This document shows positions 31,533 to 57,954 of a DNA stretch of 64,000 nucleotides, in pieces. The notes below the pieces were generated by a model. The model searched no databases. It worked only from the letters and a program-made list of their open reading frames with translations, and had not been told where the DNA came from. Each line of letters begins with the position of its first letter. The stretch's first letter is position 1. A program made the translations under genes and the position numbers. Source of the DNA: an uncultured cyanobacterium (GTDB lineage: Bacteria > Cyanobacteriota > Cyanobacteriia > Cyanobacteriales > Nostocaceae); contig OY970166.1 of assembly GCA_963706595.1 (NCBI GenBank), positions 1 to 64,000 on the forward strand. The letters are read 5' to 3'.

Positions 31533-32204
31533 ATGATCGTGACACAAGATAAAGCCCTAGCAAATGTATTTCGCCAGATGGCAACGGGAGCATTTCCTCC
31601 TGTTGTCGAAACGTTTGAACGCAATAAAACAATATTTTTTCCCGGCGATCCTGCTGAACGAGTTTATTTTCTCTTGAAGGGTGCTGTGAAACTTTCCAGG
31701 GTGTATGAGGCAGGAGAGGAAATAACGGTAGCACTGCTGCGGGAAAATAGTGTTTTTGGTGTGTTGTCATTACTGACGGGAAATAAGTCTGATAGATTTT
31801 ACCATGCGGTGGCATTTACGCCTGTAGAGTTGTTGTCAGCGCCAATTGAACAGGTCGAGCAAGCGTTTAAGGAAAATCCAGAATTATCAATGTTGATGCT
31901 GCGAGGCCTTTCTTCGCGGATTCTACAAACAGAGATGATGATTGAAACTTTGGCTCACCGTGATATGGGTTCAAGATTGGTGAGTTTTCTGTTAATTCTT
32001 TGTCGTGATTTTGGGGTTCCTTGTGCCGATGGGATTACGATTGATCTGAAGCTATCTCATCAGGCGATCGCGGAAGCAATTGGTTCAACTCGTGTAACCG
32101 TAACTAGGTTACTAGGAGATTTACGTGAAAAAGAGATGATTTCTATCCATAAAAAGAAGATTACCGTGCATAAACCTGTGACTTTAAGTCGGCAGTTCAC
32201 TTAA
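31533..32204 (+). CDS. ntcA: Global nitrogen regulator NtcA (CRP family)
   Basis: [15 protein letters not shown]..., [33 protein letters not shown]. 223 aa. Confidence 0.98.
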
Positions 32205-32228
32205 AAGTCATGAAATTTTGCTAAAATG

Positions 32229-32237
32229 TGGTAAACT
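32229..32237 (+). promoter_or_regulatory. Extended -10 promoter element (TGnTAAACT)
   Basis: TGGTAAACT directly 5' of the structured element at 32243-32433. Confidence 0.5.
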
Positions 32238-32242
32238 CAGGG

Positions 32243-32433
32243 GGTCTATCATAGACATTAAAGCCTGCCCGTGAACTGCGGGAAAGTAAACGCCCAAGAC
32301 TTGAATCAACGGTTCACGGAAACAACACTCGGCCTGTTTTGGCAAACAGGGTGTGCCTGAGAACCCAATTAATTGGGATATACGAGGCAAAATCTTTGTA
32401 GAATCTCACTATCCCTAGTAGTGGGAGTATCAA
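32243..32433 (+). ncRNA. Candidate stand-alone TnpB omega/reRNA scaffold ending in an IS200/IS605 right end
   Basis: Several hairpins, a pseudoknot-capable CCGTGAAC/GTTCACGG pair, and terminus TGTAGAATC-N19-GAGTATCAA, which parallels TGTAGAATC-N19-GAGTGTCAA at the right end of the tnpB element in this window. Confidence 0.68.
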
Positions 32434-32487
32434 AAGGTAATCAATGAAAGTAGTAGGCTGTATCTGGAAGCATTTCGGTAGCTAAAG

Positions 32488-33873
32488 ATGACCACCGGGT
32501 ACATCCTTATCGCAGCAATGTTAATTTTGGGGGGCGTAATTGCCACCGTGGGCGATCGCATTGGCACACGAGTTGGCAAAGCACGCCTCTCACTGTTTAA
32601 CCTTCGTCCTAAAAAAACGGCTGTATTGGTAACTATCTTTACAGGTGGATTGATCTCGGCATCAACATTAGGAATTTTATTTGCTGCTGATGAAGGATTG
32701 CGGCAAGGGGTATTTGAGTTAGAAGATATTCAAAAAGACCTGAGAAACAAGCGGGAACAGCTAAAAATTGCGGAAACTGAGAAAAGTCAGGTAGAAACTG
32801 AATTAAGTACAGCTATTCGTGAACAAAGTAAAGCACAGCAAGACTTGCAGGTAATTAATAAGTCCTTACAAGCAGCTAACGCTAAACAACAAGCAACAGA
32901 AACTCAACTTCAACGGACTCAAAAGCAATTAGGTGAAATAGTAAATCAGTATCAACAAGCCTTAACTGAACTGCAAAGCGTTTACAATCAAAGAGAGACA
33001 TTGCAGGGGGCGATTGAAGAACTGAGGGCAGAACGACAACGACTTTTTGCGGAAGCGAAAACAGCTATTAACCAACGCGATCGCAAAATTGCCCAACTGG
33101 ATAGAGTGATCAAAAAACGCAATCAAGAAATTGCGGCGCGAGAGCAAGTGATAGCGACAAGGGAATCTCGCCTCAAAGAATTGGAAAGACAACAGAATTA
33201 TTTAGAAGCAGAAGTCGCAAGGCTGGAAAAATATTATCAGTCATACCGTGACCTCCGTTTAGGTAAGCTGGCATTGGTTCGCAATCAAGTTCTGGCTGCG
33301 AACGTGGTTCGCGTTAATCAAGCCAGTGCAGCTCGTGAAGCAGTCACACAACTTTTGCAAGCAGCTAACCAGAATGCCAATATATATTTAACTGAACCAG
33401 GAGAAAATCCGACAAATAAAGATTTGCTCCCTATTACCCAGAAAAGAGTAGAGCAAATCAGCCAGCAGATTAAAGATGGTCGAGAGTACGTTGTGCGAAT
33501 CTTCTCTGCTGGTAATTACGTTAGGGGAGAAAACCAGATCGAATTTTTTGCAGATGCAGCCCGAAATCAACTGGTTTTTTCAAAAGGTGAGGTACTGGCG
33601 ACAACTACTGCTGATCCCAGAACTATGACATCTTATCAGCTATCGCAAAGACTCGATTTGCTGATTTCTGCTTCGGAATTTCGGGCGCGGAATGCCGGAA
33701 TTGTCGAGGGTGTGTTAAGAGAAGGGACTCATTTACGCTTTTTCTTACAACTAAGACAGTATAATCAACCGTTAGAAATCAAAGCGATCGCCAGTGAAGA
33801 TACATATACAGCAGGACCTTTAAGAATAAAGCTATTGGCAATTTTCAACGGGGTAGTTATTTTTAACACCTAA
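32488..33873 (+). CDS. DUF3084 coiled-coil membrane-anchored protein
   Basis: LGGVIATVGDRIGTRVGKARLSLFNLRPK, then a long coiled coil. Usual neighbour of ntcA. Confidence 0.85.
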   Translation: MTTGYILIAAMLILGGVIATVGDRIGTRVGKARLSLFNLRPKKTAVLVTIFTGGLISASTLGILFAADEGLRQGVFELEDIQKDLRNKREQLKIAETEKSQVETELSTAIREQSKAQQDLQVINKSLQAANAKQQATETQLQRTQKQLGEIVNQYQQALTELQSVYNQRETLQGAIEELRAERQRLFAEAKTAINQRDRKIAQLDRVIKKRNQEIAAREQVIATRESRLKELERQQNYLEAEVARLEKYYQSYRDLRLGKLALVRNQVLAANVVRVNQASAAREAVTQLLQAANQNANIYLTEPGENPTNKDLLPITQKRVEQISQQIKDGREYVVRIFSAGNYVRGENQIEFFADAARNQLVFSKGEVLATTTADPRTMTSYQLSQRLDLLISASEFRARNAGIVEGVLREGTHLRFFLQLRQYNQPLEIKAIASEDTYTAGPLRIKLLAIFNGVVIFNT

Positions 33874-56479: not shown

Positions 56480-56630
56480 TTGTCTACAACCTGCTGGGTT
56501 GACACTCACCGAATTAGAAATTCGGGGATTCTACATTCACTGACTCGCCGTTAGACGACAGGCTTGCGCCAACCGCCCAAGAGGGCAAATCTCCTGTAGC
56601 GTAAGTTCCGGTATGCCCTACCGTACTGAG
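56480..56630 (-). ncRNA. Predicted omega/reRNA of the tnpB element (scaffold plus flanking guide CCCAGCAGGTTGTAGACAA)
   Basis: Overlaps the tnpB 3' end. Stem CGGTA/TACCG with loop GGGCA complementary to downstream TGCCC, CTACA/TGTAG stem, RE hairpin, TCAA. Ends approximate. Confidence 0.65.
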
Positions 56631-57859
56631 TCCTAGTCTCAAAATATTGATTGCGGCATTGGTATCTCTGTCTTCTACATATCCGCAATGTGGGCAAACA
56701 TGAGTCCTTGTAGACAAAGATTTCTTCACTTTCTGTCCGCAGTTAGAACAATTTTGGCTTGTATTATGGGGTGGCACTGCAACAGTTACCGAACCATATT
56801 TATGACCAAAATATTCTAACCAAGCGCGAAAAGTATACCAACCAGCATCACTAATCGATTTAGCTAGATGTCGATTTCTTACTAGCCCTTTCACATTTAA
56901 ATCTTCATAGGCTACCAAATCATTAGATTGGATGACGGAGTACGCTAATCTCTTGCAATACTCTTTTCGTTGCCTACTTACCCTTAAATGCTTGCGAGCA
57001 TACCTATTTCTAGCTTTGTGGTAATTGTTTGATTGCCGTTGCTTGGCTTTTTTCTTAGCTGCACTAAACTTCTTGGATTTCTTGCGGTTAGCACGGTTTA
57101 ACTGTTTTTCTGACTTACGGTAGAACTGGGGAGAAGGTTCTACATTACCTTTGTTATCAGCAATGAAGTATTTCAATCCCAAATCAATGCCAACTATTTG
57201 GTTCGTGGGTTGTTTTTCCACTCTCACATCAACATCAACCGCAAATTGAGCATAGTATCCGTCAGCACGACGCACCAAACAGACACGCTTAATTTGCTTG
57301 ATGTCATAGTAATTAAGGTCGTAAGTCCCTTTTAGCTTGAGAGTGCCAATACCTTTCTTATCTGAGAAGGTTATGGCAATTCTTGTTTCTGAAAGCTTCC
57401 ATCCGGTTGATTTATATTCAACTGAACGGCAATTTTTCTTGAACTTGGGGAAACCCTTTTTACCCAAAACCTTTTTCTTGCAGTTATCGTAAAACCGAGC
57501 TATTGCACTCCAGGAACGTTCAGCAGCAGACTGTCTAGCCATTGAGTTGAGTTCATCAGCAAAGGAAAATTCAGCGGCGAGTACCGCACAATATTTATTG
57601 AGGTCATACCTACCAATGTTTTTATGATCCATCCAGTAGCGCAAACACTTATTTTGGATGAACTGGGAAGTACGAATCGCCTCATCAATAGCGCGATACT
57701 GCTTGTCTTTTCCTTTGACCTTGAACTCGTAAACAATCATGGTTCGACCAATTGACCACAAATTTATGTTACCACAATTGACATAAGACGGCTAAATGAA
57801 TTTAGCGCATTCGCTTAGATCCCCCGAATGGAATTCGGGGGTTTTACGCATCACGGCTC
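56499..57859 (-). mobile_element. tnpB-only IS200/IS605-family element (IS1341/IS891-like), 1361 bp
   Basis: Left end TTAT|GAGCCGTGATGCGTAAAACCCCCGAATTCCATTCGGGGG. Right end GAATCCCCGAATTTCTAATTCGGTGAGTGTCAA|. No tnpA and no TSD. Confidence 0.9.
56514..57740 (-). CDS. tnpB: RNA-guided endonuclease TnpB
   Basis: GFPKFKK, RuvC-I GIDLG, RuvC-II YEDL, zinc finger CSNC..CPHC, RuvC-III DRDTNAAINI. Confidence 0.95.
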   Translation of the reverse strand: MIVYEFKVKGKDKQYRAIDEAIRTSQFIQNKCLRYWMDHKNIGRYDLNKYCAVLAAEFSFADELNSMARQSAAERSWSAIARFYDNCKKKVLGKKGFPKFKKNCRSVEYKSTGWKLSETRIAITFSDKKGIGTLKLKGTYDLNYYDIKQIKRVCLVRRADGYYAQFAVDVDVRVEKQPTNQIVGIDLGLKYFIADNKGNVEPSPQFYRKSEKQLNRANRKKSKKFSAAKKKAKQRQSNNYHKARNRYARKHLRVSRQRKEYCKRLAYSVIQSNDLVAYEDLNVKGLVRNRHLAKSISDAGWYTFRAWLEYFGHKYGSVTVAVPPHNTSQNCSNCGQKVKKSLSTRTHVCPHCGYVEDRDTNAAINILRLGLSTVGHTGTYATGDLPSWAVGASLSSNGESVNVESPNF

Positions 57860-57863
57860 ATAA

Positions 57864-57896
57864 GGGAGTAGGGAGTAGGGAGTAGGGAGTAGGGGG
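57864..57896. repeat. STRR array (GGGAGTA)n abutting the IS left end
   Basis: Four tandem heptamers. Confidence 0.85.
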
Positions 57897-57954
57897 AAAG
57901 AAATTTACGCAAAACTTTTTTCACTCAAAACTTTCCTCACTCAGCACTCAGCAC

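Follow-up and report, generated by a model that had tools for sequence, protein, structure and literature searches.

The closest described systems to the sequence analyzed here are the PATE elements, the omega-RNAs of canonical TnpB, and the guide RNAs of the TldR proteins. PATE elements "often encode omega-RNAs" (Meers et al. 2023, preprint, Geobacillus stearothermophilus, PMC10055086) and, according to the text passages of that preprint, contain no open reading frame (ORF), carry at the right end an omega-RNA scaffold whose adjacent flank is the guide, are dispersed, often in several copies, in genomes that also have tnpB and the Y1 transposase gene tnpA, and need TnpB in trans. The sequence in question is an ORF-less omega-RNA-type scaffold in the spacer between ntcA and a DUF3084 gene of an uncultured cyanobacterium of the family Nostocaceae (assembly GCA_963706595.1, contig OY970166.1, positions 1 to 64,000 of the forward strand; this whole stretch of 64,000 nt is referred to below as the window). 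With a probability of about two in three, in our estimate, the 226-nt segment containing this scaffold is a stranded, immobilised copy of a PATE-like, protein-less IS200/IS605 mini-element, the promoter of which probably reads into DUF3084.

The family to which the segment belongs shares with PATE all of the features listed above. It differs from PATE, as far as the text passages of the preprint allow comparison, in its cyanobacterial host phylum, in a longer eight-helix scaffold of ~190 nt with no Rfam match, and in a fixed extended −10 element right before the scaffold in 31 of 40 gene-less copies; the window copy, moreover, has neither a left end nor a cognate TnpB in its genome. In common with the canonical TnpB omega-RNA (reRNA), it has a homologous scaffold (56–68 bits in relatives, 23.5 bits for the window's own tnpB element), the same GAAUC–hairpin–GAGUGUCAA module, and the TCAA boundary. 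Unlike it, the scaffold has no tnpB upstream and is predicted to start from a dedicated promoter and not from tnpB mRNA or an internal start; where tnpB is linked, the homologous 5′ part encodes protein. A TnpB-type scaffold fixed at a chromosomal locus outside transposition is also found with the nuclease-dead TnpB-like repressors TldR (Wiegand et al., preprint, 10.1101/2023.11.30.569447); compared with these, the window copy has no adjacent dead TnpB gene (its neighbours being ntcA and DUF3084), no conserved guide directed against a promoter elsewhere (its guide occurs only once in the genome), and no sign of purifying selection on its scaffold.

A covariance model built from eight copies (R1, alignment A1) gave ~269 matches in 71 of the 151 genomes of the family, with up to 16 scored per genome. 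Matches of 56–68 bits overlapped the last ~170 nt of intact tnpB frames of 472–508 amino acids (aa) with the D/E/D motifs (G028, G083, and others). The lower-scoring matches in G028 and G083 lay directly after matches to the zinc ribbon PF07282, and the scaffolds ended in GAGTGTCAA. One of the tnpB-linked frames, 477 aa in length, matched guided_TnpB with 253 bits and contained the motifs CDLG, VENL, and HADINAA; in copies of this kind, coding sequence made up the 5′ portion of the scaffold (…NAAKNIRDRA…). Given this overlap with the 3′ ends of intact tnpB genes in some relatives, the scaffold behind ntcA is, by homology, a TnpB omega-RNA, as the first-pass annotation, a reading of the window made from its letters alone, had claimed. 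That annotation had also recommended a covariance-model search for ORF-less copies, and the structure-conserving homologues thus found were mostly gene-less. Of the 48 members that were aligned, 8 were tnpB-linked and 40 had no frame of at least 250 aa. No long frame entered the scaffold at the best 30 loci, and the 78 ORFs (at least 120 aa) around 28 of these were unrelated genes, with no TnpB among them (Pfam); the neighbours included ferritin, psbQ, rpsB, petH, argG, upp, porins, and two group II intron reverse transcriptases. In relatives, BLASTN likewise found similar sequence at further loci, with no TnpB adjoining any of them in tblastn, and the TnpB of the window, used as a tblastn query against seven loci with related scaffolds, found no TnpB there.

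The right end was conserved, with most of the 48 rows ending in GAGTGTCAA or a close variant, whereas the 22 nt downstream differed among the copies, except in four syntenic orthologs with a common flank. Two near-identical copies in genome G123 had in common the ~100 nt preceding the scaffold, in which there is a hairpin, and diverged right after TCAA; three copies of this genome had identical scores. The close relatives of the window copy in G179, G031, and G147 had a common left end of 45–100 nt with hairpins. The gene-less copies belong to the PATE-like class of mini IS200/IS605 elements, which the literature already mentions, and the gene-less form would have arisen through loss of tnpB between a left-end promoter and the scaffold. 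An attempt to derive a target-adjacent motif (TAM) was abandoned: CCAC precedes the junction in two G123 copies and at the ancestral ntcA-side site, but the G179/G031 subfamily has no common flank.

Eight helices (P1–P8) were read on the 48-member alignment (A2). Over 45 pairs, 86.3% of the cells paired versus 67.3% in shuffled alignments, double changes occurred in 39 of the 45 pairs, and none of 500 shuffles reached any of five covariation measures. It should be noted that the rows are related and the shuffle counts therefore overstate the significance; the slid controls (38–46%) are the fairer comparison. Helices P2, P5, P6, and P8 were part of the model behind the alignment, whereas P1, P3, P4, and P7 lay outside it and thus were not favoured by it. 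Compensatory changes across the 48 members bore out three structures of the first-pass annotation, namely, the first stem CCCG…CGGG (P2), the hairpin CCCAAT/ATTGGG (P6), and the terminal module GAATC–hairpin–GAGT(A/G)TCAA. Two others failed: the pairs of the proposed hairpin CCTGTTT/AAACAGG held in as few as 5 of 37 rows, and the family has in its place GCC/GGC (P5) nested in ACACUC/GGGUGU (P4), while the proposed pseudoknot TGAAC/GTTCA paired in 55.0% of the cells versus 54.9% in shuffles (257 of 500 shuffles at or above the observed value). Two long-range helices proposed by RNAalifold from eight sequences (ACUC/GAGU and CAGG/CCUG) fitted the 48 rows worse than P4 (pair 92–187 formed in 22 of 43 rows, pair 111–119 in 23 of 44) and were both dropped. 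Nothing in the whole window reached the gathering score of an Rfam 15 model; between 32000 and 32700, at E-values up to 10, only chance-level matches appeared, none over the scaffold. 6S RNA, suspected from the size and position, was ruled out by the absence of an Rfam match.

The extended −10 element TGGTAAACT (hexamer TAAACT, 32232–32237) would place the start of transcription near 32243–32245. A standard −35/−10 scan omitted it because there is no −35. The pattern TGnTAnnnT was found at −11 to −13 from the start of the model in 31 of the 40 ORF-less copies and in 0 of the 8 tnpB-linked ones, and in those 31 it ended 7–8 nt before the (G/A)TCAGTA start of P1; among the remaining nine, several had near variants and one was interrupted by the end of a contig. 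In the three sister species discussed below, the element was kept as TGGTAAACT, TGGTAGAGT, and TGGTAAAAT, so that TGnTA…T is present in all four syntenic species. Thus, the promoter-like −10 postulated in the first-pass annotation stood, both in its presence and in the constancy of its position. Its statement that no credible ORF follows also agreed with the ORF list, in which no long frame lies on the + strand between ntcA and DUF3084 and only frames of 60 and 39 aa lie on the − strand.

The boundaries of the segment were obtained from relatives without the element. Synteny of ntcA and DUF3084, both on the + strand in the window, was kept at 30 loci of the family, with a spacer of 166–192 nt in most and of 283 nt in the window. 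The spacers of element-free relatives shared with the window only the last ~54 nt (32434–32487) and the first bases past the ntcA stop codon (32202–32204); between these parts they contained a different, conserved segment of 112 nt. A 2302-nt RNA-library contig of a relative joined 32207 to 32434, skipping 226 nt and having 112 other letters between them, and in element-free relatives homology restarted at 32430–32434. The scaffold, ending in …GAGTATCAA, has its TCAA at 32430–32433, and the relative's contig together with the spacer boundaries therefore sets the right edge exactly after TCAA (empty-site joint 32433/32434), where the first-pass annotation had put it; the comparison of spacers across strains that it had recommended revealed both the element-free sites and the ancestral 112-nt segment. 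The scaffold stood in place of this segment only in the window genome and in G008, G006, and G005, which belong to the same genus. The identity of DUF3084 to that of the window was 90.5–95.5% in these three and 85–89% in seven other species, and since the three are the closest by this measure, a single event in the common ancestor of the four species fits.

At the opposite end, the 21 nt between the left junction and the −10 contained no hairpin and had no likeness to the left ends of other copies, and the same was found in the three sister species; folding energies upstream of the scaffold were weakest in the four syntenic copies. The resemblance of CATGAAAT (32210–32217) to ATGAA of other left ends falls at an internal left-end position and was taken as chance. 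The right end, with P8 and TCAA, is present, and the left end is absent, as had been remarked from the outset; the window copy is therefore a truncated derivative and not an intact PATE-like member. Of the earlier suggestion of a minimal non-autonomous element, the dispersed, often multi-copy, gene-less nature of the family was upheld, as were its setting among unrelated housekeeping genes and its divergence right after TCAA, but this copy has lost its left end. The scaffold is single in its genome: R1 found only the candidate, BLASTN of the spacer against the genome gave only chance matches of 15–30 nt, and an nhmmer profile of the family detected in the 5.57-Mb genome no other full scaffold, but only terminal-module matches beside several tnpB genes and one stub. 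This stub (101316–101439, − strand) consists of a decayed tnpB frame of 137 aa followed by a remnant of model positions 74–196 (nhmmer E-value = 0.0035).

A cognate TnpB was lacking as well. The best of the homologues in the window genome was 38% identical to the TnpB of the cognate clade used as query (33 of 33 candidates scored); in G006, no homologue exceeded 37%. The window genome has six homologues of the Y1 transposase. Across the 151 genomes, 38 had both the scaffold and a TnpB of the cognate clade (E-value ≤ 1 × 10−80), 33 the scaffold only, and 5 the TnpB only, figures in which absence is weak, since only 10 candidates were scored per genome. Full scoring revealed no intact cognate TnpB in the window genome, G006, G011 (eight scaffold matches, best TnpB 35% identical), or G123 (seven scaffold matches, and only a 211-aa fragment of the protein).

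Sequence divergence among the four sister species was compared with that at 4-fold degenerate sites, of which only small numbers (86–191) were available. The element of G008 was 88.1% identical to that of the window versus 82.6% at 4-fold sites (71/86), that of G006 81.6% versus 86.4% (165/191), and that of G005 80.6% versus 79.6% (152/191), the last with 51 gap columns, mostly one deletion removing P4–P6. Divergence of the element is close to that of 4-fold sites, and the RNA is drifting roughly neutrally. Meanwhile, the ancestral 54-nt leader behind it was 93–96% identical in the three sister species versus 81–88% for the element. The window copy kept 56 of 63 near-invariant columns (conserved to at least 85% in the other 44 rows), while the closest copies outside the locus kept 60 of 63.

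These data suggest the following history. The intact mini-element would have consisted of a hairpin left end, a TGnTAnnnT promoter, an eight-helix scaffold of ~190 nt, and a right end in GAGTGTCAA, with the next ~20 nt as guide. Already without tnpB, it would have entered the ntcA–DUF3084 spacer in the common ancestor of the four species, and a later deletion would have removed the far part of the left end along with ~112 nt of the ancestral spacer. In its present state it can no longer be mobilised and has no cognate TnpB in its own genome, and it would have lost its function as a guide. Its promoter is the part that probably still works: transcripts from ~32244 would run through the scaffold, as a long 5′ leader, into DUF3084. 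Such read-through is likely because there is no terminator before DUF3084 (a scan of the + strand from 32204 to 32488 found no terminator-like site) and the ancestral upstream segment, which may have held the ntcA terminator and the ancestral promoter of DUF3084, is gone. RNA-library contigs covered 32286–32477 (100% identical) and 32296–32515, the latter with a 22-nt leader insertion typical of sister strains. None of the sequencing runs sampled contained more than one-fifth of the sampled words, and X1 covered the flanking genes only.

Several observations weigh against this interpretation. The two RNA-library contigs have a depth of ~2.5 and come from metatranscriptomes with possible carry-over of DNA, from which strand, ends, and level cannot be read. 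The promoter of DUF3084 could instead lie within the retained 54 nt, or its transcripts could come from read-through of ntcA. The order proposed here, insertion before deletion, is the presumed one. In G008, the element is more similar than the 4-fold sites, and the RNA may be under weak constraint. The candidate forms 40 of the 45 family pairs, which ranks it among the top third of the 48 rows. The same genome, G008, has two cognate tnpB copies with identical scores and 73% identity to the cognate query, both interrupted by an in-frame TAA; from this it follows that the gene was seemingly copied after being broken and that the cognate clade was recently present in the genus. Finally, the terminal module (GAAUC, hairpin, GAGUGUCAA) is common to several TnpB elements of the window genome, so that a heterologous TnpB might load the RNA in trans, and the catalytic motifs are largely kept in the resident TnpB frames: of 22 aligned, 21 had the RuvC-I aspartate, and the complete frames kept the other two motifs with two exceptions, a frame shortened by a stop and a 601-aa fusion. 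The coordinates of all features are given in Table 1.

Table 1. Features of the ntcA–DUF3084 spacer and of related loci (window coordinates unless a contig is named)
Feature	Position	Strand	Basis or remark
Inserted or replacing segment, 226 nt	32208–32433	+	Comparison of spacers at 30 syntenic loci; contig of a relative (32207 to 32434)
Remnant between left junction and −10, 21 nt	32208–32228	+	Alignment with eight close copies carrying left ends of 45–100 nt
Extended −10, promoter-like, TGGTAAACT	32229–32237	+	Motif recurs, equally spaced, in 31 of 40 ORF-less copies
Omega-RNA-type scaffold, ~194 nt	32240–32433	+	Covariance-model matches of 203 bits (R1) and 173.7 bits (R2); covariation
P1	32244–32256	+	Helix of scaffold
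P2	32268–32282	+	Helix of scaffold; CCCG…CGGG stem
P3	32300–32311	+	Helix weakened in this copy by a 2-nt deletion
P4	32325–32354	+	Helix enclosing P5
P5	32332–32343	+	Helix nested in P4
P6	32364–32377	+	Helix; CCCAAT/ATTGGG hairpin
P7	32381–32400	+	Helix of scaffold
GAAUC	32401–32405	+	Motif of terminal module
P8	32405–32425	+	Hairpin of terminal module
Tail GAGUAUCAA	32425–32433	+	End of scaffold
Guide-equivalent flank AAGGTAATCAATGAAAGTAG, first 20 nt past right end	32434–32453	+	Position relative to TCAA
Ancestral DUF3084 leader	32434–32487	+	Conservation not tied to the element; match in 33 of 36 other family genomes
ntcA (upstream neighbour)	31533–32204	+	NCBIfam TIGR03697 NtcA_cyano, 381 bits (cut-off 245); ORF list
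DUF3084 gene (downstream neighbour)	32488–33873	+	Pfam PF11283, 113 bits
tnpB 3′-end RNA region (tnpB ORF 56514–57761, − strand)	56499–56644	−	R2, 23.5 bits, E-value 0.001; TnpB by Pfam and NCBIfam
TGGTAACAT, TGnTAnnnT motif in left end of full element, upstream of tnpB start	57766–57774	−	Sequence reading
Interrupted cognate tnpB copies of G008	C43:58790–60220; C155:7471–8901		Identical scores; one in-frame TAA each

Among the alternatives, the one that survives best, although it is unlikely, is that selection now maintains the promoter and scaffold to serve DUF3084 as promoter and structured 5′ untranslated region, with an effect in cis on stability or translation and without any involvement of TnpB. 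It agrees with the retention of TGnTA…T in the four syntenic species, with the lack of a terminator before DUF3084, with the contig that spans the start of this gene, and with the presence, at 9 of the best 30 loci elsewhere, of a same-strand ORF starting within ~60 nt past the end of the scaffold. The last proportion, however, is not above chance, and at ~15–20% divergence it would be only slightly improbable for three species to retain all five key −10 positions (estimate ~0.09). Selection on the leader is also difficult to reconcile with scaffold divergence near the 4-fold rate and with the species that deleted P4–P6 yet retains the gene; the strong conservation lies in the ancestral 54 nt and not in the element.

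It is doubtful whether the mini-elements are portable promoter-plus-leader cassettes that rewire their neighbours and whose RNAs are used by non-cognate TnpB proteins sharing the guide-proximal module only. Promoter-bearing, gene-less scaffolds were found in many Nostocaceae genomes where no intact cognate TnpB turned up, and in the window the element displaced the ancestral region upstream of DUF3084, directly behind ntcA, the nitrogen regulator; if this reading were true, such use of the RNAs would amount to a guide-RNA commons among IS families.

The central proposal of the first-pass annotation, a stand-alone guide RNA gene, fared poorly, and we consider it improbable that a live RNA is transcribed here from its own promoter, trimmed to the scaffold and ~16–20 nt, and loaded in trans by one of the ~30 resident TnpB homologues, or by a nuclease-dead one, which would then cut or bind a site matching the guide. 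The −10 element, the helix pairs that remain intact, and the guide-proximal module common to several resident TnpB elements speak for it, as does the proposal, in the text passages of PMC10055086, that PATE-borne omega-RNAs act in trans. A dead effector might be sought in the resident 601-aa fusion (G000 C1:363121–364926; L040:1417–3222, − strand), which combines an IS607-type serine recombinase (residues 11–143) with TnpB (195–568) and seems to be without the RuvC-II glutamate, this residue being replaced in the alignment; identification of this protein as Cas12k was ruled out by its being an IS607 recombinase–TnpB fusion. Against a live guide RNA stands the lack of the cognate TnpB, and the resident tnpB loci match the scaffold only at the terminal module or with the weak 23.5 bits. 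The guide AAGGTAATCAATGAAAGTAG, whose targets the first-pass annotation had recommended searching for, had no second site in its own genome at up to three mismatches over 20 nt; three 16-mer near-matches had unrelated 5′ flanks, and the sole perfect target is the element's own flank, which is preceded by the TCAA of the element and not by an empty-site TAM. The same letters are conserved in relatives that never had the element, and they are thus conserved as the DUF3084 leader and not as a guide. Near-neutral divergence, the large deletion in one ortholog, and the loss of 7 of the 63 near-invariant positions point in the same direction. An active stand-alone guide-RNA gene is unlikely here because the copy is truncated, has no compatible effector, diverges at about the 4-fold-site rate, and has no second target.

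Decayed tnpB stubs with scaffold remnants, such as the one described above, do occur in the window genome, but it is very improbable that this is another, in which a full element lost its gene in place and the adjacency of promoter and scaffold is accidental, given that the junction is collinear with the ORF-less family (TGnTAnnnT stands at −11, an arrangement found in 31 of 40 copies from many genomes), which puts the loss of tnpB before the insertion in the window, and that upstream there is no TnpB-like coding remnant, ntcA ending 25 nt before the −10.

If the stranded mini-element is the correct reading, the ntcA–DUF3084 region of the window species and its three sisters is a transposon relic and not the ancestral spacer, and this relic probably provides a promoter and a structured leader of 190 nt for DUF3084, which matters for studies of ntcA termination and DUF3084 expression. 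Beyond the locus, a large family of cyanobacterial TnpB guide-RNA scaffolds without an Rfam entry has been defined, in tnpB-linked and gene-less forms; its eight-helix model could help to annotate short "intergenic repeats" of Nostocaceae, and the family provides a naturally occurring range of cases in which to study how guide-RNA elements lacking a gene are maintained in the absence of their nuclease. Searches of the text of published work returned no description of this cyanobacterial scaffold family. No new principle is involved, because PATE-like omega-RNA elements are already in print.

The window contains a full tnpB element of its own, and the first-pass annotation had described its RNA as parallel to the candidate module by module. 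With the eight-helix model (R2, built from alignment A3) and filters off, the 3′-end region of this tnpB ranked second in the whole window after the candidate (173.7 bits), with a score whose E-value calibration is rough (23.5 bits, E-value = 0.001). It aligned end to end through P2, AGGAGAU, P5, AGCCUG, AGAAUC, P8, and GAGUGUCAA, but without P3, P4, P6, and P7; R1 matched only its terminal 28 nt (E-value = 0.068 in 111 kb; 0.016, filters off, in 26 kb). The parallel thus survived as a weak end-to-end match, with four helices missing and the pseudoknot unsupported. To judge from these alignments, it is real but weak, and the two RNAs belong to different subfamilies. The remark that a promoter-like motif also precedes tnpB in the full element held: TGGTAACAT stands behind the left-end hairpins of this element, as the analogue of the candidate's promoter. 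Just outside the same left end (~57880–57915, − strand), there are about five copies of the heptamer CTACTCC.

Further observations concern the ancestral parts of the spacer. The core of the 54-nt leader, GAAAGTAGTAGGCTGTATCTGGAAG, is conserved far above the neighbouring DNA. A GTA-N8-TAT within 32434–32487 resembles the NtcA box and is regarded as a candidate only. Many relatives (L048, L049, L050, L058) have in this leader an insertion of 21–22 nt (GCCTCCGGCACAC…GTGAAC), which the window does not have (at 32475) and which is also present in the RNA-library contig X3. The replaced 112-nt segment is conserved across many genera as GGGGAGGTGGAGTGGC…GGAGGTAAATCT…TTGCCAA…CCAC (for example, at L058 in G009 and L052 in G002).

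Two observations were made on family members elsewhere. In the gene-less copy L077 (G002 C1, ~4369800–4370090), the loop of P6 contains an insertion of ~90 nt, and a hairpin resembling an intrinsic terminator lies ~45 nt past the end of the scaffold. In G031, a group II intron starting with GTGCGATTCG, with a reverse-transcriptase ORF downstream, occupies the same point, right after …GGGAGTG, in two scaffold copies (L064/L090, C1 ~1260212, and L079, C1 ~1946559), so that the right end of the element looks like a homing site of the intron.

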